NCBI GenBank assembly: GCA_047651235.1
Contig: CP178758.1
Location: 120,001-152,000 of the forward strand
From: Candidatus Electrothrix yaqonensis
Lineage (GTDB): Bacteria > Desulfobacterota > Desulfobulbia > Desulfobulbales > Desulfobulbaceae
Length of the DNA stretch: 32,000 nucleotides
Direction of reading: 5' to 3'
The number at the start of each line of letters is the position of its first letter. Position 1 is the stretch's first letter. Under the pieces are notes generated by a model. It made no database searches. It had not been told where the DNA came from and saw only the letters and a program-made list of their open reading frames with translations. This document shows, in pieces, positions 1,415 to 16,153 of this stretch. The position numbers and the translations under genes were made by a program.

Positions 1415-1604
1415 CTGTTCCCCTCTGCTCTGTGCGCCTGCCGTGCATTGTTGGGGGCGGGCCTCTGATTCTCCAGGTACAGTCGATTATAAACAAGGCG
1501 CTGCGGAATGTCTATCTTCCTGAGCTTTTCCGTGGTGGAGACTGTCCTGTTCGGGTATACTTGGGAGCATTACTGATTAAATTCAAGCCAATGGAGGGAA
1601 GGGT

Positions 1605-1964
1605 ATGGACTTTGTCACTTCCGCGATTGCGTCTGCGGTAGGCAGCCTGGGGCTGGAGGGCGTAAAGCATGGATACACCAGGTTAAAGGAGCTGTTACAG
1701 GGTAAGTTCGGCGAACAGAGCGCGCTGGCTGATGCAGTGGAGCAGTTGGAGAAGAACCCGGACTCTGCTGGGCGGAAGGCCGTGGTGGCAGAGGAGCTGG
1801 CAAAGGTCGGGGCGGATAAGGATGAGGAGGTGCTGGCTGCGGCCAGGCAGTTGCAGGACAAGCTCGACGGAGGGCAGCCGCAGGTGGATGCCCGAAAAGC
1901 CAAGATAGGGGTGATAGGGGATCATGCCAAGGTGAAAGGCGGCATTCATTTCGACGGGAAATAA
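1605..1964 (+). CDS. Small helical protein with a hydrophobic N-terminal helix and a C-terminal NLR-matching motif (Bell/HeLo-like candidate effector)
   Basis: Strong RBS (GGAGGGAAGGG) directly upstream of the ATG. N-terminus is MDFVTSAIASAVGSLGLEGV. The body is Ala/Glu/Lys-rich and looks helical. The C-terminus KIGVIGDHAKVKGGIHFDGK matches the start of the next gene. Confidence 0.7.
   Translation: MDFVTSAIASAVGSLGLEGVKHGYTRLKELLQGKFGEQSALADAVEQLEKNPDSAGRKAVVAEELAKVGADKDEEVLAAARQLQDKLDGGQPQVDARKAKIGVIGDHAKVKGGIHFDGK
1905..1952 (+). other. C-terminal copy of the shared 16-aa motif IGVIGDHAKVKGGIHF
   Basis: Direct comparison with 2037-2084 gives 13/16 identical residues and 6 synonymous codon differences. 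Confidence 0.85.
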
Positions 1965-1986
1965 CCGACAGAGGATAATGTAGGGT

Positions 1987-2000
1987 CACGGCGCGCCGTG
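1987..2000. promoter_or_regulatory. Perfect 14-nt GC-rich palindrome CACGGCGCGCCGTG in the 60-nt gap between the effector-like gene and the NLR gene
   Basis: Read directly. Flanking GGG(T)...(C)CCC can extend the stem. Its function (attenuator hairpin or operator) is unknown. Confidence 0.3.
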
Positions 2001-2024
2001 CCCCTACGGTATGGTGATTTACAA

Positions 2025-3965
2025 ATGAGCGATCAGATTGGAATCATTGGCGACAAGGCCAAGGTGGAAGGCGGTATTCATTTCCATAGTCACTCTGCCC
2101 CGGCCAAACTTCCCCATCTTCTTCCTCCGCAAGACACTGTTTTCCTGTACCGGGAGGACGAACTGGCTTGGCTGGATCAGCACCTGCACCCTGACAAGGT
2201 GGTTGCTGTGTGCGGACCCGGCGGCATGGGCAAGACCTCTCTGGCTGCCCGCGCCGTGCGTAGCCTGCCTCCTGACCGCTTCCCGGACGGCATTATCTTT
2301 CACACCTTTTACCATCAGGCCGAGACCACCAAGGCCCTCCAGACCATTGCCCATGCCCTGGGCCTCAAGGCTGAGGCCGATCTGGAGCAGCAGGTAGCTG
2401 CGGCCCTGGGCAGCAGGCAGGCCCTGCTGATTCTGGACGGGGCTGAGGAGGCGGAAGACCTCCAGGCGGTGCTGCCTCTGCGGGGGCGATGCGGGGTGTT
2501 GATCACCACCCGGAAGAAGAGCGATTGCGGGCCGCTGCGCCTGGACCTGCAAGCCCTGCCGGATGAGCAGTCTGAGGATGTGCTGCGGGCCTGGGGCGGG
2601 GAGGCCGGGGATCAGGACGCCATAGAGGAGATTGCCGAGCTGCTGGGTGGCTGGCCCGTGGCCCTGCGTCTGGCCGGGCATTATCTGCACAGCACCGGAG
2701 AGCCTGCAACAGACTACCTGCGCTGGTTGGAGGAGGAGCCGTTCAAGGAGCTGGGGGAGAGTGAGGAGCACCAGCGGGATAATGCGGCCCTACTGCTCAG
2801 GCGGAGCACGGCCCAGGTGGGAGAGGATGCCCGCCTTGTGCTGGGACTGGCAGGGTGTCTGGCCTTTGACCTGCTGTCTGCTGCGCCCATGACTGCCCTG
2901 CTGGAGGACGATACCCGCCGCTGCCGCAAGGCTGTGAACGAGCTGGTCAATTACGGCCTGCTGGAACGCCGGGGCGACCGCCTGCACATAGGTCATGCCT
3001 TGATCCATGAGTACGCAGCCCGGAACCTGCCCCTGAGCACAGAGGCTCTGGAGCGGGTGGCTGCTTATTATATTGATTGGTGCAAGGAACAGAGTGCTGC
3101 CGGTGTGCCGGGTTATGCCCGTATGGATGATGAACGGGCGCATTGCCTGCGGTTGATAAAGAGCTGTTTGGACAGGGAGCTGTGGGAGGCGGTGAAAGGG
3201 TTGGTCTGGGCAATCGACATCTACTTAGACCGACAGGGCTGGTGGACAGAGGAACTGGCTGCCTGGGAGATGGGGCTGACTGCGGCCCGGCAGGCTGGCG
3301 ACCGCAAGGGTGAACGCTGGTGCCTGACCAACCTAGGGTACACCAGTCGACAACGCGGAGACGATGATAAGGGCTTGGACTACTATCAGCAGAGTCTGAC
3401 TATAGCCCGTGAGCTGGGAGATAGAGAGGCTGAAGGAGAACTTTTGAACAACATGGGTGTAATCTTTCGGCAACAGGGCAAGTATGAGCTGGCCTGGGAG
3501 CAGTATCATCAAAGCCTCAGTATCAAGCGGAAGATCGGTGACCGTGAGGGGGAAGGAGTGACCCTGAATAATATCGGTGAGTTTTACCGAAACCAAGGCG
3601 AGTATGAACAAGCCCTGCAGTATTATAAGCAATGCTTACCTATCAGAAGGGAAACTGGAAGCAGTAGAGGAGAAAGTATAACTCTGACTAACATTGCCGC
3701 GATATACCGTGCACAAGGTAATCCTATCAAGGCATTGGAGTATCACGAACAAGCCTTGGCAATACGGCAGGAGCTTGGTGATAGGGCCAGAGAATCGCAG
3801 AGCCTCTATAACATCGGCCGCACCTATGAAGATATGGGCGACCTTACCCAAGCCGAGGAATACATTGCCCTGGCCGTGGAGATTGCAGAGGCTATGGGGC
3901 ATCCTTCCTTAGAGAAATACCGCAACTACCTGGAGCAGCTGCGGGCCAAGCGGCAGGCAGGGTAG
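2025..3965 (+). CDS. STAND NTPase of NB-ARC type with C-terminal TPR array (bacterial NLR-like protein)
   Basis: Walker A GPGGMGKTSLA, Walker B ALLILDGAEE, and a GxP-type motif LGGWPVALRLAG. About five 40-aa TPR units follow (LNNMGVIFRQQGKYELAWEQY..., LNNIGEFYRNQGEYEQALQYY...). I prefer the ATG at 2025 (MSDQIGIIGD...) over the track's GTG at 1998, which lies inside the palindrome. Confidence 0.9.
   Translation: MSDQIGIIGDKAKVEGGIHFHSHSAPAKLPHLLPPQDTVFLYREDELAWLDQHLHPDKVVAVCGPGGMGKTSLAARAVRSLPPDRFPDGIIFHTFYHQAETTKALQTIAHALGLKAEADLEQQVAAALGSRQALLILDGAEEAEDLQAVLPLRGRCGVLITTRKKSDCGPLRLDLQALPDEQSEDVLRAWGGEAGDQDAIEEIAELLGGWPVALRLAGHYLHSTGEPATDYLRWLEEEPFKELGESEEHQRDNAALLLRRSTAQVGEDARLVLGLAGCLAFDLLSAAPMTALLEDDTRRCRKAVNELVNYGLLERRGDRLHIGHALIHEYAARNLPLSTEALERVAAYYIDWCKEQSAAGVPGYARMDDERAHCLRLIKSCLDRELWEAVKGLVWAIDIYLDRQGWWTEELAAWEMGLTAARQAGDRKGERWCLTNLGYTSRQRGDDDKGLDYYQQSLTIARELGDREAEGELLNNMGVIFRQQGKYELAWEQYHQSLSIKRKIGDREGEGVTLNNIGEFYRNQGEYEQALQYYKQCLPIRRETGSSRGESITLTNIAAIYRAQGNPIKALEYHEQALAIRQELGDRARESQSLYNIGRTYEDMGDLTQAEEYIALAVEIAEAMGHPSLEKYRNYLEQLRAKRQAG
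2037..2084 (+). other. N-terminal copy of the shared 16-aa motif IGIIGDKAKVEGGIHF
   Basis: See 1905-1952. Confidence 0.85.
3310..3920 (+). repeat. Tandem TPR-coding repeats (about 120-nt period) inside the NLR gene
   Basis: A recurring pattern G(D/S)R.(G/A)E...L.N(I/M)G..Y..QG.Y..A(L/W).(Y/Q)(Y/H).Q(S/C/A)L.I appears about five times. Boundaries are approximate. Confidence 0.7.
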
Positions 3966-5152
3966 GGGGGTATGCAGCTCCTCATGGATGACCGCCTTAT
4001 CGCGGGGCGCAGCTTAACCGGACTGCGCAATGTTATCAGGGCAATCTCACTGCGCTGCCAGAGGCGCATTCGCGGCCCCCAAGTTCCGGTGCCCCGGCAG
4101 ACAAACAGGCTCATGCCCTTAACCAGATACTGACCGCTGAGAAAAGGATAGCGGCTGCGGACCAGATAACTGAACGGCCAGATCTGGCCGTTATGCGTAT
4201 GGCCGGAGAGCATGAGGCCGACGCCGTCAGCAGCGGCCTGTTCAACCAGCCAGGGCGTATGGGAAAGCAGAATGGTCGCTCCGGCAGGCCGATCAGTCAG
4301 GGCGCGGGTGAGGTCGGCTTTTCCCTGTCCGCTCCGGCGGCGGGATGAGGTCAGATCATCAATCCCGGCCAGCACCAGCCCGGGGGCAAGCTCTGTCCAT
4401 TCATTACTCAGCAGGCGGATGCCGGAAGCAGCCAGGATGCTTCCGGCGCGATCAGGGCGGCCGGGCCGAAAGCGGTCATGATTGCCCCGCACCGCGAACA
4501 CGCCCAGCGGAGCGGAGAGCTGCTGCAGGACCGGAGCCAGTGCCGCCGCATCGCTGCCCCGCTCAAACAGGTCGCCGACCAGAACGATGCAGTCCGGCTG
4601 CAGATTCTGTACCTGTCGGACGCGGGCCTTGAGCCAGTCCGCATTGATGAACATCTTACCGAGATGGAGGTCCGAAAGCACTACCACTGTGGTTCCGTCC
4701 AGATTCGCAGGCAGCCCGCTGACCGTGGTTGCATACTGCTCAACAACCGGTGGCTGCAGGCCCTGCACATGGGCGATCAGCACCAGGCCGATACCGCAGG
4801 CCAGGGTAGCTGAGCGGATGCGGAGCACAACCGCTTTAGGTAGAAGCAGCCCGAAACCTGTGAGCAGGTCGGCAGCGAATAAGGTCATTGCAAGCAGGAA
4901 CAGGCTGCCCATCCACTGTATTCCCGCAACTCCCGCAACTCCCGCAACTTCGAGCAGCTCTGTCAACAGACTGCCCTTCTGTCTACGAAACATCCGGCCC
5001 AGCACAAAGACCAGCCAGAGCAGCACGCCGATCCCCCATAACATCCTGCGCCTGATCCGGCTGCGGCACAGGGGCAGAGAAGCCAGCCGGACAAAAACAT
5101 ACAGGTGCATCACGGTCGTCAGAAAAGTCAGGACTGTACCGAAAAATGACAT
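3926..5152 (-). CDS. Membrane-anchored calcineurin-like metallophosphoesterase (YaeI-like)
   Basis: Several N-terminal hydrophobic helices, then the phosphoesterase motifs DLHLG, GDLFERG, GNHD and GHTH. Its 3-prime end overlaps the convergent NLR gene by 40 nt. Confidence 0.85.
   Translation of the reverse strand: MSFFGTVLTFLTTVMHLYVFVRLASLPLCRSRIRRRMLWGIGVLLWLVFVLGRMFRRQKGSLLTELLEVAGVAGVAGIQWMGSLFLLAMTLFAADLLTGFGLLLPKAVVLRIRSATLACGIGLVLIAHVQGLQPPVVEQYATTVSGLPANLDGTTVVVLSDLHLGKMFINADWLKARVRQVQNLQPDCIVLVGDLFERGSDAAALAPVLQQLSAPLGVFAVRGNHDRFRPGRPDRAGSILAASGIRLLSNEWTELAPGLVLAGIDDLTSSRRRSGQGKADLTRALTDRPAGATILLSHTPWLVEQAAADGVGLMLSGHTHNGQIWPFSYLVRSRYPFLSGQYLVKGMSLFVCRGTGTWGPRMRLWQRSEIALITLRSPVKLRPAIRRSSMRSCIPPYPACRLARSCSR
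4923..4949. repeat. Perfect 9-bp tandem repeat (cccgcaact x3), in frame within the phosphoesterase gene
   Basis: Read directly. It encodes VAGVAGVAG on the minus strand. Confidence 0.9.
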
Positions 5153-5564
5153 GGTAGCTCGTATTTGTTTTAATTATTTCAGGCTGTGCAGTGCATTTTC
5201 GCTCTGCGGAAGGGAGGGTCAAACTGTCAGGCTCATGAAATTTCGTGCCACATCCCTGCGGAAAAAGCAACAGGAAACACCGTTGCAGGATAAACCGTTG
5301 CTGTTCTTTATGTTGAATTTTTTGTACCGACTGGCTCTGCGGAGCAGCGGGAGAACATTCCCTGATGGCGTCAAAAAAATATTTTTCAGGCAGCCTGCAA
5401 AAAAGTACGGCTTATCTTGGCTGCGGAACAGGATATTATATTTTATTGAAGAAAAATGAAGACATTCTTACAAACATGAGTTTTTTTTCTGCTTGACAAT
5501 TGCCCGATTATGCTCTTCATTGTGCAATGAACAAAAAGACAAACAGGTCTAACTGAAAAGGTTA

Positions 5565-6068
5565 TTGACAGAGGAGCACCCAGGCCGCCCTGTCAGAAAT
5601 TCTGAATACGTAAAGCGTGTAAGTGAATCTGTGGAAGCAACCGGATACGAAAAGGATTTTTATTCATGGGCGATGCAGAATGCTGCTTTGCTCCGCGAAC
5701 GGAGGCTGCAGGAAATTGATACGGAGAATATAGCAGAAGAGCTTGAGGCGATGGGTAAAAAAGAAAGGAGAGAACTCATCAGCCGTCTGAGCGTCCTGAT
5801 TGCCCATCTGCTGAAATGGCCGTATCAGGCTGTAAGAAGATCGAGAAGCTGGAAAAATACTGTCTCAACGCAGCGTATCGATATCAACGAACTCTTTGAA
5901 GACAGTCCGAGCCTTCGGCATGGCCTCGGAGAGACAATAAAAAAGGCGTATAAAAAAGCGGTGCTGAAGGCGGAGGATGAAACCGGTATCGCCAAGGAGC
6001 AGTTTCCCGGAAATTGTCCGTTTTCAGCTGAAGAAATACTCAATGAAGATTTTTTCCCGCAGGAATAG
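5565..6068 (+). CDS. DUF29 family protein
   Basis: YEKDFYSWAMQNAALLRERRLQEIDTENIAEELEAMGKKERRELISRLSVLIAHLLKW matches the DUF29 pattern as I remember it. The start is uncertain: TTG at 5565 in the track, or possibly GTG at 5631. Confidence 0.7.
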   Translation: MTEEHPGRPVRNSEYVKRVSESVEATGYEKDFYSWAMQNAALLRERRLQEIDTENIAEELEAMGKKERRELISRLSVLIAHLLKWPYQAVRRSRSWKNTVSTQRIDINELFEDSPSLRHGLGETIKKAYKKAVLKAEDETGIAKEQFPGNCPFSAEEILNEDFFPQE

Positions 6069-6130
6069 CAGGGGGCAGGGGAGAAAAAAGGAGCCTTTTC
6101 TCCTGACGGTAACCTATCTAACGTATCGAC

Positions 6131-7297
6131 ATGCAATCACTTGAAAAGTACAGAGCGGACAACGCCCTCCCGGAAGGATTCAGGCTGCCCCTTTCAGAGG
6201 AAAAGGATGCCGAAGATTTTTTTGTCAATATCGGGCCGCAGCATCCCAGCACCCACGGCGTGCTGCGGGTGGTTGTCCGGCTGAACGGCGAGACCATTGT
6301 GGAGGCGGTGCCGCATCTCGGTTATATTCATCGCGGCATTGAAAAAATGGCCGAGAACCAGACCTATATCCAGAATATCCACCTGACGGACCGGCTTGAC
6401 TATGTCTCTGCCTTTTTCAACAACCTCTGTTTCTGCCTGGTTGTGGAACAGGCTCTGGATATCGGCGTGCCTGAGCGCGGCGAGTACATCCGGGTGATGA
6501 TCTGCGAGCTGCAGCGGCTGCAGTCGCATCTGCTCTGGTGGGGCGTCATGGGCATGGATCTGGGCGGTTTTACCCCGTTTCTCTACGGCTTCCGGGAACG
6601 GGAGATGATTACGGATATTTTTGAAGAACTCTGCGGCGCCCGCCTGACCATGAATTTCTTCCGGCCCGGCGGTTCTTCCTTTGACGCTCCGGACACCTTT
6701 ATTCCTAGGGTGAAAAACGTGATCAAGGTGATGTACAAAGCTCTTGATGAATATAACACCCTGCTCAGCGGCAATATTATTTTTCAGGAACGGACACGGG
6801 GGGTCGGCGTTCTTTCTCCTGAAACCGCGCTCTCCTACGGCTGCAGCGGCGCCGTGCTGCGCTCCACCGGTGTTTCCTATGACGTGCGCAGAAACGATCC
6901 CTATTCAATTTACGACCAGTTTGACTTTGATATTCCGACCGGCACCAGGGGCGACAGTCTGGCCCGTTATCAGGTGAAAATGGAGGAAATGGCGCAGTCG
7001 CTGCGCATTCTGGAGCAGGCTGTTGAACGATTTTCCGACGGACCGTACCGCAGTCAGCCCAAGGCGACCTATAAATTACCCAAGGGAAGTTATTACAGTC
7101 AGGTGGAAACGCCGAGAGGCCTGCTGGGTACCTACATCGTTTCAGATGGCGGCCCTAAACCGTATCGGGTCAAATTCCGGTCACCGAATTTTTCCAACCT
7201 CAGTGTGCTGAATGAAGCTGCAGCAGGGCATAAAATTGCCGATCTGATCAGCATTATGTCAAGCATGGATTTTGTTATCCCGGATATGGACAAGTAG
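6131..7297 (+). CDS. nuoD: NADH-quinone oxidoreductase subunit D
   Basis: NIGPQHPSTHGVLR, the LGYIHRGIEK motif, and a C-terminus ending DFVIPDMDK. Typical length and operon context. Confidence 0.95.
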   Translation: MQSLEKYRADNALPEGFRLPLSEEKDAEDFFVNIGPQHPSTHGVLRVVVRLNGETIVEAVPHLGYIHRGIEKMAENQTYIQNIHLTDRLDYVSAFFNNLCFCLVVEQALDIGVPERGEYIRVMICELQRLQSHLLWWGVMGMDLGGFTPFLYGFREREMITDIFEELCGARLTMNFFRPGGSSFDAPDTFIPRVKNVIKVMYKALDEYNTLLSGNIIFQERTRGVGVLSPETALSYGCSGAVLRSTGVSYDVRRNDPYSIYDQFDFDIPTGTRGDSLARYQVKMEEMAQSLRILEQAVERFSDGPYRSQPKATYKLPKGSYYSQVETPRGLLGTYIVSDGGPKPYRVKFRSPNFSNLSVLNEAAAGHKIADLISIMSSMDFVIPDMDK

Positions 7298-7312
7298 CCG
7301 GAGAAAGAGAAA

Positions 7313-8407
7313 ATGAATATGTCAGCAGCAGAAAATTTGTACCCTGTCCACAACAGCATCGGTAATGCCGTACGCGCCATGTTCCCGGAAAGCGCGTTTT
7401 TCATCAACTCGGTCCTGGCCATTGTCGGCCTGATGGCCGTGGTTTCGGCTCTGGCTGCCGTCCTAATCCTGATGGAGCGCAAGGTGGTTGCCCATTTTCA
7501 GGTGCGGCTCGGTCCTATGCGGGTCGGGTATCACGGCGTCCTGCAGCCCCTGGCCGACGGACTCAAGCTGATTTTCAAGGAGATTCTCAAGCCCAGAGGA
7601 GCAGACACCTTTATCTTTTACCTCGCCCCGATGCTGCCCCTGAGTGCGACCTTTCTTATCATGGCGGTTCTGCCCTTTGATCACCATCTGCAGGTAGCTG
7701 ATCCGGATGGAGGCGTGCTCTATGTGCTCGGTATTTCTGGCCTGACCGTGCTCGGTATTCTGCTGGCTGGCTGGTCGTCCAACAACAAGTATTCCCTGCT
7801 CGGCGCCATGCGTTCCGGGGCTCAGATGATTTCCTTTGAGGTCTCTGTCGCCCTGATCATGCTGCTCATTGTTATGGTCTCCGGTACGACCTCCCTGCGC
7901 GGCATCGTGCTTTCTCAGCAGGGCCTGATTTTCGACTGGTGGATATTCAAGATGCCCTTTCTCGGCATTGTCTCGTTTATTATGTACTTGGTCGCCTCCA
8001 CGGCCGAACTGAACCGCACTCCCTTTGATATCGCTGAAGCGGAATCCGAGCTGGCCGCAGGGTACCATACCGAGTACTCCGGCATGAGCTTTGCCATGTT
8101 TTTCTTTGCCGAATTCGTTAATATGTTTGTCTCGGCAGGACTGGCAACCACTTTTTTCCTCGGTGGTTTTCATCCGCCTCTCCTCGACATTGCCGCTGTT
8201 GACGGCCTGTTCAATGCTATACCGGGATTTATCTGGTTTTTCGGTAAGACATTTTTTATCATTTTTGTCTACATGTGGTTCCGCTGGACCTTCCCCCGCG
8301 TCAGGGTGGATCAGCTCATGTACCTGGAATGGAAAATGATGCTGCCCTTTAATCTGCTTCTCCTGATGCTGGGTGCCGTGTTTGTGATTCAGGGTTGGGC
8401 GGGGTAG
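7313..8407 (+). CDS. nuoH: NADH-quinone oxidoreductase subunit H
   Basis: MERKVVAHFQVRLGPMRVGYHGVLQPLADGLKL, and a polytopic membrane protein with AELNRTPFDIAEAESEL. Confidence 0.95.
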   Translation: MNMSAAENLYPVHNSIGNAVRAMFPESAFFINSVLAIVGLMAVVSALAAVLILMERKVVAHFQVRLGPMRVGYHGVLQPLADGLKLIFKEILKPRGADTFIFYLAPMLPLSATFLIMAVLPFDHHLQVADPDGGVLYVLGISGLTVLGILLAGWSSNNKYSLLGAMRSGAQMISFEVSVALIMLLIVMVSGTTSLRGIVLSQQGLIFDWWIFKMPFLGIVSFIMYLVASTAELNRTPFDIAEAESELAAGYHTEYSGMSFAMFFFAEFVNMFVSAGLATTFFLGGFHPPLLDIAAVDGLFNAIPGFIWFFGKTFFIIFVYMWFRWTFPRVRVDQLMYLEWKMMLPFNLLLLMLGAVFVIQGWAG

Positions 8408-8412
8408 GCAAC

Positions 8413-9846
8413 ATGCTGGACGCCGCCATCCGGGAGACCGCTCAAGATGATATTTTTTTGGGAGAGATAGAAGCGCAGGATAATATCCTGCTGAATTATT
8501 TTGCTGAAAAAATAGTCGTTGACGATTCACTGACCAGGCGGCTTGTCAGCTTTCAGGCCAATAAAAGCCGAACGTATTACAGGTGGTATAAATATAAAGA
8601 AGCATTTTCTGCTGATCTGATCGAATATCTTTTCCGGAAATACAATATAAAAAAAGGAAAAATACTTGATCCGTTTGCCGGTGCCGGAACTGCCTTATTT
8701 GCCTGTTCTGCTTTGGGGCATCCTGCTGAAGGGATTGAGGTTTTACCGGTTGGACAGAAGATCATAGAAGCAAATATTCTTGCCAGAGGTAATGGAAAAC
8801 AGAGTATTATCTCTGTTTTGGAAAGATGGGCTGCTGAACAGCCGTGGGAGAGGGAAGGTAAAAGGAAAAAAGTTGAGGTATTCCGGATAACAGACGGGGC
8901 ATATCCCAAAGAGACATATACAAAAATAGAAAGGTATTTAAACGATATCGAGGGAGAGTGTGCAGAAGCACAGGAAATCTTATTGTTTGCCCTGCTCTGT
9001 GTTGCTGAGTTAATAAGTTACACGAGAAAAGACGGGCAGTATCTCCGCTGGGATTATCGGGCTGGGAGAAAGATTGGCAAGACGGCTTTTGATAAAGGGA
9101 AAATTTTATCCTTTGATGAAGCTGTCGTAAAAAAGCTGAACGAAATAAAAAAAGATATTGAACTTGGCGACAGAAAAAATGATCTGTTTTCTTTTATGCA
9201 GAAAGATATACCGGCGGGCAGGCTCAGGCTGTACCGAGGCTCCTGTCTGGAGATTCTGCCTCAATTGGAAAGCAATACCTATACCGGGATAATTACGTCA
9301 CCACCTTACTGTAACCGCTATGATTATACGAGAACGTATGCTTTAGAACATGCATTGCTCGGTGTAAAAGAAACCGAGTTGTCGAATCTGCGGCAGGCTA
9401 TGTTAAGCTGTACAGTAGAAAATAAGGCCAAAGAACTTGTCGGACTGCATCATAAATGGAAAAGAGCAGTGGATATATGCGACAATCTTCCTTTATTGCA
9501 GCAGATACTGCAGTACCTGTACTATAAAAAAGAGAAAAAAGAATTGAATAATAACGGTATTGCCCGGATGGTGCGGGGGTATTTCTATGAAATGGCTTGT
9601 GTGATTCAGGAATGCCGCAGGGTGCTGGAAAAAGGCGGTATGATGTTCATGGTGAATGATAATGTCAGGTATGCCGGAGCAGCATTGTCCGTTGATACAA
9701 TTCTTTCAAAGATAGCAGAGGAAATAGGATTCCGGATAAACAATATTCTTGTTCTGCCCCAAGGCAAAGGAAACAGTTCGCAGCAGATGGGCCGACATGG
9801 ACGGGCAGTTTTGAGGAAATGCGTCTATGTATGGGAAAAAGGATGA
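8413..9846 (+). CDS. Site-specific DNA methyltransferase (amino-MTase; motif I before motif IV)
   Basis: Motif I ILDPFAGAGTALFA and motif IV IITSPPYCNRYDY. The N-terminal YRWYKYKEAFS is typical of this MTase group. I prefer the ATG at 8413, 5 nt after the nuoH stop. The track's TTG at 8395 would overlap nuoH. Confidence 0.9.
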   Translation: MLDAAIRETAQDDIFLGEIEAQDNILLNYFAEKIVVDDSLTRRLVSFQANKSRTYYRWYKYKEAFSADLIEYLFRKYNIKKGKILDPFAGAGTALFACSALGHPAEGIEVLPVGQKIIEANILARGNGKQSIISVLERWAAEQPWEREGKRKKVEVFRITDGAYPKETYTKIERYLNDIEGECAEAQEILLFALLCVAELISYTRKDGQYLRWDYRAGRKIGKTAFDKGKILSFDEAVVKKLNEIKKDIELGDRKNDLFSFMQKDIPAGRLRLYRGSCLEILPQLESNTYTGIITSPPYCNRYDYTRTYALEHALLGVKETELSNLRQAMLSCTVENKAKELVGLHHKWKRAVDICDNLPLLQQILQYLYYKKEKKELNNNGIARMVRGYFYEMACVIQECRRVLEKGGMMFMVNDNVRYAGAALSVDTILSKIAEEIGFRINNILVLPQGKGNSSQQMGRHGRAVLRKCVYVWEKG

Positions 9847-9849
9847 TAC

Positions 9850-10809
9850 ATGCCGTTCAGGATTCATCTGAAGTCATACAAAGACCTCATTACACCCTAT
9901 GAAAAAACGCGGGCCGGATTTATTGCTCTGGCACTTGAGAAAAACAGAAAAGCAACACCTTTTATTGAGGAAGCCAAGGTGCTTAAGGCGTTGGCTTTAA
10001 AGGCGGAAATACCAAGAAAGTTGTTATTGATTCATGAAATAGAAAATTCATTACTGACAGCTGCAGGGATTTCGGAAAAAGCAAAGAATCATCTGCAGGA
10101 GGAAGACAAGAAGGAGGCAATCAAAGGATTAATCGATAACTTTCTCGAACCTGCGGGCAGCTCTTTTATTGAAGAACTGGTTTATCGTTTCCTGCTGACA
10201 AGAGGAGATGCTCTCGGCGGCAGCATCCGAAATCTCTCCGGCGCACTGGGTGAATGGCGGTTTACCAGAATATTCATTTCCACCTGTTCGGTAGGCGGCA
10301 TGACTGTTGAATATCTTGATGCAAAGAGCAGGAAATGGATGCGGGCAGATACTGAACCGGAAATAGAGAAAAGGATTAAGGGGCTGCATTGGCTTTCTTG
10401 TGGAAATCCTCGTACGTTAATTTATAATTTAACCGTACCCACAGTGCAGAAAAATGTTGATCTCTGCCTGTTTGATTGTTCTCCCGATGAAATTATATTC
10501 GGCAAAAACAAAGAATCTGTTCACTTCAAATCGAAAAAATATCTTGCACTGGGCGAGCTGAAAGGAGGTATTGATCCGGCAGGAGCGGATGAACATTGGA
10601 AAACAGCGAACTCTGCTCTTGAGAGAATCAGGAAGGCTTTTTCCGGACAAAACTGCAGGCCGAGAACATTTTTTGTCGGTGCTGCGATAGAACATGCTAT
10701 GGCTGAAGAAATATTTCAGCAGCTGGACAGCGGCAGGTTATCAAATGCAGCAAACCTGACCGATGAGAAGCAGGTCGTTTCACTGTGTGATTGGCTCATA
10801 AAATTATAG
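9850..10809 (+). CDS. Putative type II restriction endonuclease partner (PD-(D/E)XK-like)
   Basis: Starts 3 nt after the MTase stop. Candidate catalytic pattern VDLCLFD ... LGELKGG (D...E-x-K). The family was not identified. The call rests mainly on context. Confidence 0.55.
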   Translation: MPFRIHLKSYKDLITPYEKTRAGFIALALEKNRKATPFIEEAKVLKALALKAEIPRKLLLIHEIENSLLTAAGISEKAKNHLQEEDKKEAIKGLIDNFLEPAGSSFIEELVYRFLLTRGDALGGSIRNLSGALGEWRFTRIFISTCSVGGMTVEYLDAKSRKWMRADTEPEIEKRIKGLHWLSCGNPRTLIYNLTVPTVQKNVDLCLFDCSPDEIIFGKNKESVHFKSKKYLALGELKGGIDPAGADEHWKTANSALERIRKAFSGQNCRPRTFFVGAAIEHAMAEEIFQQLDSGRLSNAANLTDEKQVVSLCDWLIKL

Positions 10810-15437: not shown

Positions 15438-15698
15438 ATGTATTTATCTGTTAAAAATGTTGTGCCGCTCGCAGATTATAAATTGCTTCTGACGTTTGAA
15501 AATGAAGAAGTCAAAATATTTGATCTTACTCCTTACTTGGCAACAGGACAATTTTCAGAACTTCGGGATATTGCACTATTCAACTCTGTCTCCGTCTCTT
15601 TCGATTCGATAGAATGGGCTAATCATTTAGATTTAGACCCAGAGTTTTTGTACAAGAAAAGCACAACAGTCAATAATCCACAGAACATTACAAACTGA
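15438..15698 (+). CDS. DUF2442 domain protein (partner of DUF4160)
   Basis: Lies 4 nt after the DUF4160 stop. V.PL.DYKLLLTFENEEVKIFDL.PYL..G.F..L....LF.SV.V.F.SIEW.N.LDLDPEFLY. Its stop overlaps the next ATG (TGATG). Confidence 0.85.
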   Translation: MYLSVKNVVPLADYKLLLTFENEEVKIFDLTPYLATGQFSELRDIALFNSVSVSFDSIEWANHLDLDPEFLYKKSTTVNNPQNITN

Positions 15699-16153
15699 TG
15701 GAATGGGCCAGCGTCATCAATAATCCTCTGCTGAAGGATCTGCCGTTCAAGATCGAGCTGAACAAATGGGGAAAAATCCTCATGAGTCCGGCGAGCAACA
15801 ATCACGGCAGACTTCAGTACGAGGTGGGCAGGCGCATTGATCGGCATAAGGGCAGCGGCAAGGTCATCATGGAGTGCTCCATTCAGACCAGTGACGGAGT
15901 CAAGGTTGCTGATGTCGCCTGGGCATCGGATGCGTTTATTGAGAAATTCGGTTACAGCACACCGTACAGGAAAGCTCCTGAAATCTGCGTTGAAATAACC
16001 TCTCCTTCCAACTCAAAAGGTGAGATAGAAGAAAAGGTACAGCTTTATCTGGCAAAGGGAGCGCATGAAGTCTGGGTGGTGAACGAGGACGGCGATACCT
16101 TCTATCATAGTCATGAAGGACAAATTTCCGGCAGCAGAGAAATTAAGGATTAA
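15698..16153 (+). CDS. Uma2 (DUF820) family PD-(D/E)XK nuclease-like protein, short form
   Basis: KIELNKWGKILMSPASNNHG, VADVAW and PEICVEITSPSNSKGEIEEKVQLYLAKGAHEVWVV match the Uma2 core pattern (D...E-x-x-S...K). Confidence 0.75.
   Translation: MEWASVINNPLLKDLPFKIELNKWGKILMSPASNNHGRLQYEVGRRIDRHKGSGKVIMECSIQTSDGVKVADVAWASDAFIEKFGYSTPYRKAPEICVEITSPSNSKGEIEEKVQLYLAKGAHEVWVVNEDGDTFYHSHEGQISGSREIKD

Follow-up and report, generated by a model that had tools for sequence, protein, structure and literature searches.

A Bell-domain protein and an adjacent NB-ARC-TPR protein share a terminal motif in the cable bacterium Candidatus Electrothrix yaqonensis: a probable amyloid-type signaling pair

A shared peptide at the boundary of two genes

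Near the beginning of a 32,000-nucleotide (nt) stretch of the Candidatus Electrothrix yaqonensis genome (contig CP178758.1, positions 120,001 to 152,000, forward strand; the window hereafter), two adjacent and collinear genes 60 nt apart encode a small helical protein, the putative effector, and a signal transduction ATPase with numerous domains (STAND), the putative receptor. The same short motif is found at the C-terminus of the effector and at the N-terminus of the adjacent receptor, which raises the questions of whether this peptide couples the two proteins and whether such a system is new. We conclude that the pair is probably a Bell/NLR amyloid-type signaling pair of the type described by Dyrka, Saupe and colleagues (NLR, NOD-like receptor), here in a cable bacterium. 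The principal features, all on the forward strand, are as follows.

1605..1964, forward: effector gene (open reading frame, ORF), 119 amino acids (aa), Bell-type helical domain and putative C-terminal signaling motif
1605..1868, forward: Bell domain, residues 1-88, five helices (AlphaFold2 [AF2] model and domain-only profile)
1884..1952, forward: putative effector-side signaling motif VDARKAK-IGVIGDHAKVKGGIHF, residues 94-116 (receptor match and BASS3 alignment)
1905-1952, forward: within that motif, the core common to the receptor
2025..3965, forward: receptor gene, 646 aa, N-terminal motif, NB-ARC ATPase and TPR array (Pfam; start from comparison with locus L002)
2037..2084, forward: putative receptor-side signaling motif IGIIGDKAKVEGGIHF, residues 5-20 (match to effector tail and orthologues)
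2169..2771, forward: NB-ARC nucleotide-binding domain, residues 49-249 (Pfam)
3309..3962, forward: TPR array, presumed sensor region (TPR_12, TPR_10 and TPR_1 matches, residues ~429-640)

The effector C-terminus reads ...KIGVIGDHAKVKGGIHFDGK (its tail is also given as ...QVDARKAKIGVIGDHAKVKGGIHFDGK), with the motif core IGVIGDHAKVKGGIHF, and the receptor, read from the ATG at 2025, begins MSDQIGIIGDKAKVEGGIHFHS, with the motif core IGIIGDKAKVEGGIHF; the motif-bearing peptide pair is QPQVDARKAKIGVIGDHAKVKGGIHFDGK and the receptor start, MSDQIGIIGDKAKVEGGIHFHSHS. As the original prediction stated, 13 of the 16 residues are identical across a 60-nt spacer, and six codons differ synonymously (ata/att, ggg/gga, ata/att, ggg/ggc, gat/gac and ggc/ggt). 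Its further claim, that this is not a recent DNA duplication, is borne out by the 12 of 48 bases that differ between the two copies and by retention of the pairing in orthologues (see below). The match is far beyond chance: when the two termini are compared with each other, BLASTP gives E = 1e-8, and the local alignment score is 73, compared with 22.5 +/- 4.3 for shuffles of the effector tail, of which 0/5000 reach 73. Neither the motif nor the Bell domain has a further copy elsewhere in the window.

The effector carries a Bell domain

The Bell domain was described by Dyrka et al. in 2020 as an all-helical domain of ~100 aa at the N-terminus of a protein of ~120-140 aa (10.1101/2020.01.06.895854), and it is pictured in published work either as a five-helix bundle or as four helices cupping a hydrophobic helix 1. 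The effector, whose sequence is that of a hypothetical protein from Ca. Electrothrix sp. YB6 (100% identity), has this organization. An AF2 model built on 57 family members predicts five helices (residues 3-13, 18-35, 40-50, 55-68 and 74-87) forming an all-helical N-terminal domain in the 119-aa protein, with a predicted local distance difference test score (pLDDT) of >90 for the helices and block means of 87-96 across residues 1-90, followed by an unstructured tail in which residues 98-116 have pLDDT <50. The first of the five helices, MDFVTSAIASAVGSLG, is hydrophobic and Gly/Ala/Ser-rich. Bell, Hell, HeLo and Bab domains have a "MEPIS"-type N-terminal region with an acidic residue at position 2/3 (10.1101/2020.01.06.895854; 10.1101/2024.11.07.622273), and the effector N-terminus (MDFVTS..., with a family consensus of MDPITxAI...) fits this type in sequence, including the acidic residue in the hydrophobic helix.

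The effector matches Pfam PF20701 (HetE-N; E 2.2e-6, 28.3 bits, gathering cutoff 25) and has no match in NCBIfam. We considered equating HetE-N with Bell as a general rule and rejected this, as the published BASS1, 3, 4, 7 and 8 Bell proteins have no precomputed Pfam domain; for this reason, homology to Bell proteins was shown directly, by profile and BLAST comparison with published Bell-side proteins retrieved by way of their motifs in Table S2. A profile restricted to the 88 positions of the helical domain, with the motif left out, matches BASS3-bearing actinobacterial Bell proteins with E-values of 5e-8 to 5e-12 (nominal database 1e6), including GZL_01029 of Streptomyces sp. 769, which carries the motif of Table S2 BASS3 entry AJC53633.1 from the same strain designation. 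BASS8-type proteins are matched weakly, and BASS1- and BASS7-type Bell proteins are not matched by this profile. By BLASTP, an Electrothrix orthologue is 39% identical to a BASS3 Bell protein over 106 aa (E 3e-16), and the alignment extends through ...QVDARGAQ..GDH. Because of these profile and BLASTP matches to BASS3-bearing proteins, we assign the effector by sequence to the BASS3-associated Bell subfamily. The family at large has 1204 cluster representatives at E <= 1e-3 with the domain-only profile; its members are mostly 115-160 aa, and their tails are very diverse and Gly/Asn/Gln-rich. Those relatives that are named are cyanobacterial, and a tblastn search of plasmids with a cyanobacterial relative gave no match.

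The receptor is an NB-ARC-TPR STAND ATPase

The receptor has Pfam matches to NB-ARC (E 2.6e-12, 47 bits, cutoff 23.5) and TPR_12 (E 1.8e-42, 143.8 bits), so that it has the NLR-like order: an NB-ARC domain, bearing the Walker A and B motifs and further signatures after them, and then a repeat sensor domain. Four signatures, all intact, lie within the NB-ARC domain.

2214-2237, forward: Walker A, GPGGMGKT
2424-2441, forward: Walker B, LLILDG
2505-2513, forward: TTR
2646-2666, forward: GGWPVAL (GxP motif)

With these signatures, the receptor is an intact NB-ARC-TPR STAND ATPase. Both partners had been proposed in advance, one as a Bell/HeLo-like helical module and the other as a STAND ATPase of this type, and both proposals hold: the first on the HetE-N match above cutoff, the AF2 helices and the homology to BASS3 Bell proteins, and the second on the Pfam matches and signature motifs. 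Over window positions 2001-4000, the receptor gene has 64% G+C in its NB-ARC half and 54% in its TPR half, which may point to the sensor region having had a different history. The TPR region contains no tandem DNA repeats.

Motif pairing is conserved and co-varies between partners

Conservation of the peptide, asserted in the original prediction from the codon differences, extends to other loci. Orthologous pairs keep the motif on both partners in the further Electrothrix-like contigs L001 (QIGVIGDNAKVKGGIHF and QTGITGDKAHVEGGIHF) and L002 (QIGVMGDHAEVKGGIHF and QIGIIGDKPKVKGGIHF), as does the divergent pair in L015 (VGVVGDKVKVEGGIHFG and VGVSGDNATIEGGIHFH), where both proteins are ~40% identical to those of the window and the genes overlap. 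The same motif is present at the receptor N-termini of all of the same-class pairs (L001, L002, L015 and L033).

Paralogous pairs in Electrothrix show a different pattern, in which the Bell domains are 65-87% identical and the NLR bodies 55-59% identical, with tails that are entirely different. At least three other motif classes are present among these paralogues, and each tail has its match in its own downstream receptor: the class GDxNIFSGTG in L008 and L011 (GDGNIFSGTGKVTVKR with GDNNIFSNTGNVHV), the class SGSGA..GGNVxGxIxMP in L009 (SGSGAIAQNGG..VAIGGNVQGGINMP with SGSGATVQNGG..LAVGGNVHGDIYMP), and the class GNGDMNIAQGEGAIGKQVN in L005 (GGVAVGGDVHGDVYAHSGNGDMNIAQGEGAIGKQVN with a near-identical receptor partner). 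All-against-all scoring gives values of 57-150 for cognate classes and 15-34 for the non-cognate combinations shown, and BLAST alignments between motif classes begin or break off precisely at the edge of the motif. Such modular co-swapping, as read from the sequences, is the expectation if the two peptides must recognize each other, and by analogy with published systems modular co-variation is the signature of amyloid-signaling pairs.

We note several additional features of these loci. In three pairs of the other classes the Bell and receptor genes overlap by 17-20 nt (L005, 5479-5498; L009, 1640-1659; L008, 5476-5492). The purine-rich overlap encodes ...KRRRDEEEE and a stop in one frame and MKKRK..EN in the other, and both proteins are therefore highly charged beside the motif. 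L008 carries two Bell/NLR pairs with different motif classes within ~5.5 kb (2024-7539), with a Uma2-family gene between them, and the first of its receptors is apparently split into ORFs of 266 aa and 184 aa. In L014, a Bell protein has a GGVHF motif and no matching partner, and three genes beside it (1747-3393, 4210-4821 and 6968-9043) share a different short motif, RDYFE(Q/R)V(E/D)GNV, which lies toward the C-terminus in a pentapeptide-repeat protein and toward the N-terminus in one downstream protein, with a looser version, KDYIERVEGDF, at the other downstream N-terminus; by sequence, these genes look like another signaling-motif set.

Composition and distribution of the motif

On the effector side, VDAR(G/K)A(Q/K)-IGV(I/M)GDH aligns without gaps to BASS3 motifs of Table S2 (for example, VDARGAQGVQIGDHGTQNNDF and VDASRAKGVIIGDHGVQHNTF), the aligning part being the VDARxAx...GDH portion, and the V-x-GGIHF ending is that of the BASS2 sub-motif VVQARDVHGGIHF (Table S2). 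In place of the BASS3/RHIM-like core G-[VI]-Q-[IV]-G, the motif has the Gln-less [IV]-G-[VI]-[IVLM]-G, and it does not follow the BASS2 profile (VxNxISGG...VVQARDVxGGIHF). The shared core is 16-17 aa long, with 23 aa on the effector side, and the motif is rich in G/V/I, lacks P/L and N/Q, and contains 4-5 Lys; BASS motifs are typically ~25 aa long, with beta propensity, and Q/N/G/V/I are enriched in them whereas K/P/L are depleted (10.1101/2020.01.06.895854). Because of this unusual composition, the Gln-less core and weak scores with BASS3 and BASS2 hidden Markov models (HMMs; see below), we treat the motif as a separate family, which on sequence grounds is probably derived from BASS3.

The distribution of the motif was determined with a degenerate DNA pattern scan of species-representative genomes. 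A Bell-alignment protein scan of genome contigs had given 600 pattern matches, of which 0 were confirmed; the later scan with the motif DNA pattern succeeded. It identified 20 stretches, in Desulfobacterales/Desulfobacteraceae, in Anaerolineae/Caldilineaceae (Chloroflexota) and in one Brocadiaceae genome, and the idea that the motif is specific to its host does not survive this result. Outside cable bacteria, Bell proteins carry the motif at their C-termini, and NB-ARC-TPR, NACHT and nSTAND5-HEAT proteins carry it at their N-termini; it is also internal to Metallophos-TIR proteins, part of Bell-motif-Metallophos fusions, and placed at the end of an LRR-Roc-COR-Bell protein. BASS11 likewise sits modularly on varied proteins (10.1101/2024.11.07.622273). 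Wherever the side is clear in the pairs and proteins read, effector copies finish in GGIHF-G (or the protein stops shortly afterward) and receptor copies read GGIHF-H.

Some of these proteins have unusual architectures. L020 (1913-5140, reverse strand) encodes an LRR-Roc-COR (ROCO GTPase) protein of 1072 aa whose last elements are a Bell domain and then the motif VGVIGDNAEVSGGIHFGSKEE, an arrangement that we read from its sequence as an effector module fused to a different class of signaling NTPase. L022 encodes tandem paralogues (1626-3275 and 3863-5641) with an N-terminal Metallophos domain followed by the motif VGIVGDHASVKGGIHFG or CGILGDNASVEGGIHIG, and one of the two has a TIR domain after the motif; the motif is internal in these proteins because the Metallophos domain precedes it and, in one, TIR follows it. 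The same motif is fused to Metallophos domains in L022, L024, L028 and L035.

A broader proposal, which we advance tentatively and as a possibility short of even likelihood, is that the motif represents an undescribed and widespread amyloid-motif family and that cable bacteria keep at least four orthogonal classes on one Bell/NLR scaffold. The family pattern would be [YF]x[IV]xxxx-[IV]G[VI][IVLM]GDxAx[VI]xGGIHF, Lys-rich and Q/N-free, perhaps having arisen from a RHIM-like BASS3 motif by loss of the glutamine core and gain of a BASS2-like GGIHF end, and with side-specific caps, HF-G on effectors and HF-H on receptors. If so, the classes could provide parallel cell-suicide channels, each sacrificing single cells of an electrically coupled filament.

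A proposed mechanism and its alternatives

Building on what was observed above (the architecture, homology for both partners, a disordered tail, and a motif that is conserved and co-varies), we propose the following mechanism for the probable Bell/NLR pair. The NB-ARC-TPR protein would be the sensor, and a ligand on its TPR array would promote nucleotide-dependent oligomerization; the oligomers would gather the N-terminal motifs (IGIIGDKAKVEGGIHF), permitting them to fold cooperatively into a cross-beta nucleus. The nucleus would in turn template the disordered C-terminal motif (IGVIGDHAKVKGGIHF) of the 119-aa Bell protein, and conversion of the tail would destabilize the five-helix bundle and free the hydrophobic N-terminal helix. 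The freed helix would then attack the membrane and kill the cell, either as abortive infection or as the sacrifice of one cell of the filament. The cross-beta fold, templating, membrane targeting, cell death and the trigger are drawn by analogy from prion and fibril data for BASS1 and BASS3 and from the Bab/Agp abortive-infection system; the BASS3 motif family is reported to form prions and fibrils. The gene arrangement is the usual one, as 91% of Bell/NLR pairs are collinear in Dyrka et al. (10.1101/2020.01.06.895854), where Bell domains, NLR-like proteins and shared motifs also track multicellularity. The host is a cable bacterium (Desulfobulbaceae, Desulfobulbia), obligately multicellular and filamentous, and fits this published association.

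Several observations weigh against this mechanism. HMMs built from published instances score the motif at only 4.7 bits for BASS3 and 6.8 bits for BASS2, and membership of either family was rejected; Pfam RHIM gives no match. The motif is also atypical in sequence for a BASS motif, with its shared core of 16-17 aa, absence of Asn/Gln and abundance of Lys, and amyloid formation is proposed by analogy only. The effector has no match among the PADLOC defense-system models, and the receptor matches only a generic TPR model, together with weak sub-threshold matches. Finally, the pair lies outside any obvious defense island.

The best-surviving alternative, which we regard as unlikely, is that the shared peptide is a docking motif, holding the Bell protein on the NLR, whether resting or activated, through a finite beta-zipper or beta-augmentation complex with no self-propagating cross-beta structure; the two proteins would still be sensor and effector, acting through stoichiometric recruitment. 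The short, Q/N-free and Lys-rich motif would suit such a role, as would the asymmetry between partners: the Electrothrix receptor side lacks the upstream "VDARxAx" strand of the effector side, and there are consistent side differences, GGIHF-G (effector) or GGIHF-H (receptor), and K or E at one position. However, proven systems also show side differences (Bell- and NLR-side columns of Table S2), and the effector is homologous to BASS3-bearing Bell proteins through the first half of the motif, and prion and fibril formation was reported for the BASS3 motif family. Moreover, the motif is attached as a module to many unrelated domains, as are published amyloid signaling motifs.

A second alternative retains the same mechanism and changes its purpose, with the pair serving in developmental or damage-induced death, or in self/non-self recognition between filaments, rather than in anti-phage abortive infection. 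It draws on the association of Bell/NLR systems with multicellularity and the obligately filamentous growth of cable bacteria, the several orthogonal motif classes on one Electrothrix scaffold, the lack of a PADLOC defense match, and the housekeeping-type flanks (ABC ATPase, membrane phosphoesterase and complex I). We nonetheless consider it decidedly improbable, given that Bab/Agp, the sole functionally tested bacterial Bell system, is an anti-phage abortive-infection system (10.1101/2024.11.07.622273), that related Electrothrix pairs adjoin genes typical of defense or mobile islands, and that the window pair has a restriction-modification pair 4.4 kb away. An origin of the resemblance in local duplication or gene conversion between neighbors, with no signaling role, would be favored by copies only about 130 nt apart on the same strand, but is effectively refuted by the sequences, as 13 of 16 residues are kept despite the 12 base differences (six of them synonymous), the pairing persists where both proteins are only ~40% identical to those of the window, and the other motif classes co-vary between partners.

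Locus layout and genomic surroundings

The remaining features of the locus were read from the sequence or predicted as indicated.

1593..1598, forward: Shine-Dalgarno-like GGAGGG, 6 nt ahead of the effector ATG (read from sequence)
1965-2024, forward: spacer between effector and receptor, 60 nt (ORF ends)
1979..2008, forward: GC-rich hairpin in the spacer (predicted in the window, L001 and L002)
2013..2017, forward: Shine-Dalgarno-like GGTGA, 7 nt ahead of the ATG at 2025 (read from sequence)

A longer receptor ORF could be read from GTG 1998 but is unlikely: in the L002 orthologue, this frame is broken by a 1-nt indel ahead of the ATG, and ATG 2025 is therefore the likely receptor start. The GGTGA ribosome-site candidate is kept in L002, and L001 has GGGGA. 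The hairpin is present at an equivalent spacer position in the window (1979-2008), L001 (about 5364-5393) and L002 (5373-5394), and the L001 stem is wholly different yet fully complementary (GGACAAUU...AAUUGUCC, as compared with CACGG...CCGUG). The energies of the ~65-nt folded stretches holding the hairpin are not significant relative to shuffles (z -1.2 to -1.9), and because no U-tract follows, the hairpin is not a canonical terminator. A promoter and terminator scan gave nothing informative.

The pair is flanked by genes for an ABC ATPase and a membrane phosphoesterase. The latter, a convergent Metallophos gene (3926-5152, reverse strand), overlaps the 3' end of the receptor gene by 40 nt (3926-3965); the presence of a Metallophos neighbor here and of motif-Metallophos fusions elsewhere may be a coincidence. 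Orthologous and paralogous Electrothrix pairs adjoin HipBA, PIN, Gp49/HTH and Uma2 genes. The nearby restriction-modification pair is BsoBI-type (N6_N4 methylase, 8395-9846; Endonuc-BsobI, 9850-10809, E 4e-141) and lies within the complex-I operon, between a nuoH-like gene (7313-8407) and nuoI/J/L-like genes (11039 onward); its G+C content is about 43%, compared with about 53% in the flanks. A DUF29 protein (5565-6068, E 7e-51) is encoded just upstream of the complex-I genes, and a gene for a Uma2 (putative restriction endonuclease-like) protein (15698-16153) is in the complex-I operon region.

Novelty and significance

The original prediction ranked this pair as a candidate for a novel immune or abortive-infection system, a claim that we do not uphold, as the architecture was already present in Dyrka et al. 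2020 and in the Bab/Agp work of 2024. What appears to be new is the host lineage and an apparently unnamed motif family; the kind of system and its mechanism are already known. In the body of literature that we searched, no paper connects cable bacteria with NLRs or amyloid signaling and none has the motif string in its text, and a 2026 review cites only Actinobacteria and Cyanobacteria as examples of multicellular filamentous bacteria with such systems.

The finding would extend the Bell/NLR amyloid-signaling design to cable bacteria within the Desulfobulbia, for which the 2020 survey recorded no Bell or NB-ARC domains, and the obligately multicellular host would strengthen the proposed tie between regulated cell death of this type and multicellularity. 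With at least four co-varying classes, the Electrothrix scaffold is a compact natural set for studying the specificity (orthogonality) of signaling set by the motif, and a motif resembling a RHIM-like BASS3 relative minus its defining glutamine is a useful case for the evolution of functional amyloid cores. To our knowledge, cable bacteria have not so far been obtained in pure culture, and functional tests therefore need another host.

Comparison with known systems

One comparison is with fungal HET-S/NWD2 (HeLo and HRAM, with a NACHT-WD NLR), where, as proposed here, the N-terminal motif of an adjacent NLR templates the C-terminal motif of a pore-forming helical effector. HET-S differs in having two pseudo-repeats that form a beta-solenoid, whereas each partner here has one motif copy, and no sequence or Foldseek similarity between the window effector and HET-S/NWD2 was detectable. 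Bab/Agp of E. coli ECOR25 (BASS11; Ibarlosa et al. 2024, 10.1101/2024.11.07.622273) supplies an experimentally supported mechanism (abortive infection with membrane relocalization), and its effector, in which four helices cup helix 1, is comparable with the five-helix model of the window protein. Its "Babybell" effector domain is shorter, about 80 aa, and its motif is of a different family; no sequence or Foldseek link to the window effector was obtained.

Among the motif families, BASS2 sub-motif all_04 (VVQARDVHGGIHF; Micromonospora and Streptomyces) has the identical V-x-GGIHF end after a hydrophobic pair, but only the last seven residues align, the spacing is off by one residue, and the long N-terminal half (VxNxISGG...) of BASS2, which is reported to be Actinobacteria-specific, is absent. 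For BASS3 (VDARGAQGVQIGDHGTQNNDF, Streptomyces sp. 769 AJC53633.1), (K/R)YQVDAR(G/K)A(Q/K)....GDH is nearly identical in the Electrothrix orthologues, with VDARGAQ matching at 7/7 positions, the motif occupies an equivalent position after the Bell domain, and both motifs end in an aromatic F. BASS3 differs in that its C-terminal half, GTQxNxF, is replaced here by AK[VI]xGGIHF, two residues longer, and in that the window receptor side lacks the VDAR strand.

The Bell/BASS/NLR pairs as a whole (10.1101/2020.01.06.895854) differ from the window pair in several respects. In Table S1, Desulfobulbia have 0 Bell and 0 NB-ARC in 34 genomes, and Desulfobacterota have three Bell-containing genomes and no motif pair; the window motif is Lys-rich and Q/N-free, with no significant BASS3 or BASS2 HMM match; and the 60-nt spacer with its hairpin contrasts with their commonest arrangement of <=10 bp or an overlap. 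The likenesses are a neighboring NB-ARC-TPR gene, collinear with the effector gene, whose product starts with the same motif, a multicellular host, several motif families on one scaffold, and a Bell domain significantly homologous to those of their BASS3-bearing Bell proteins.

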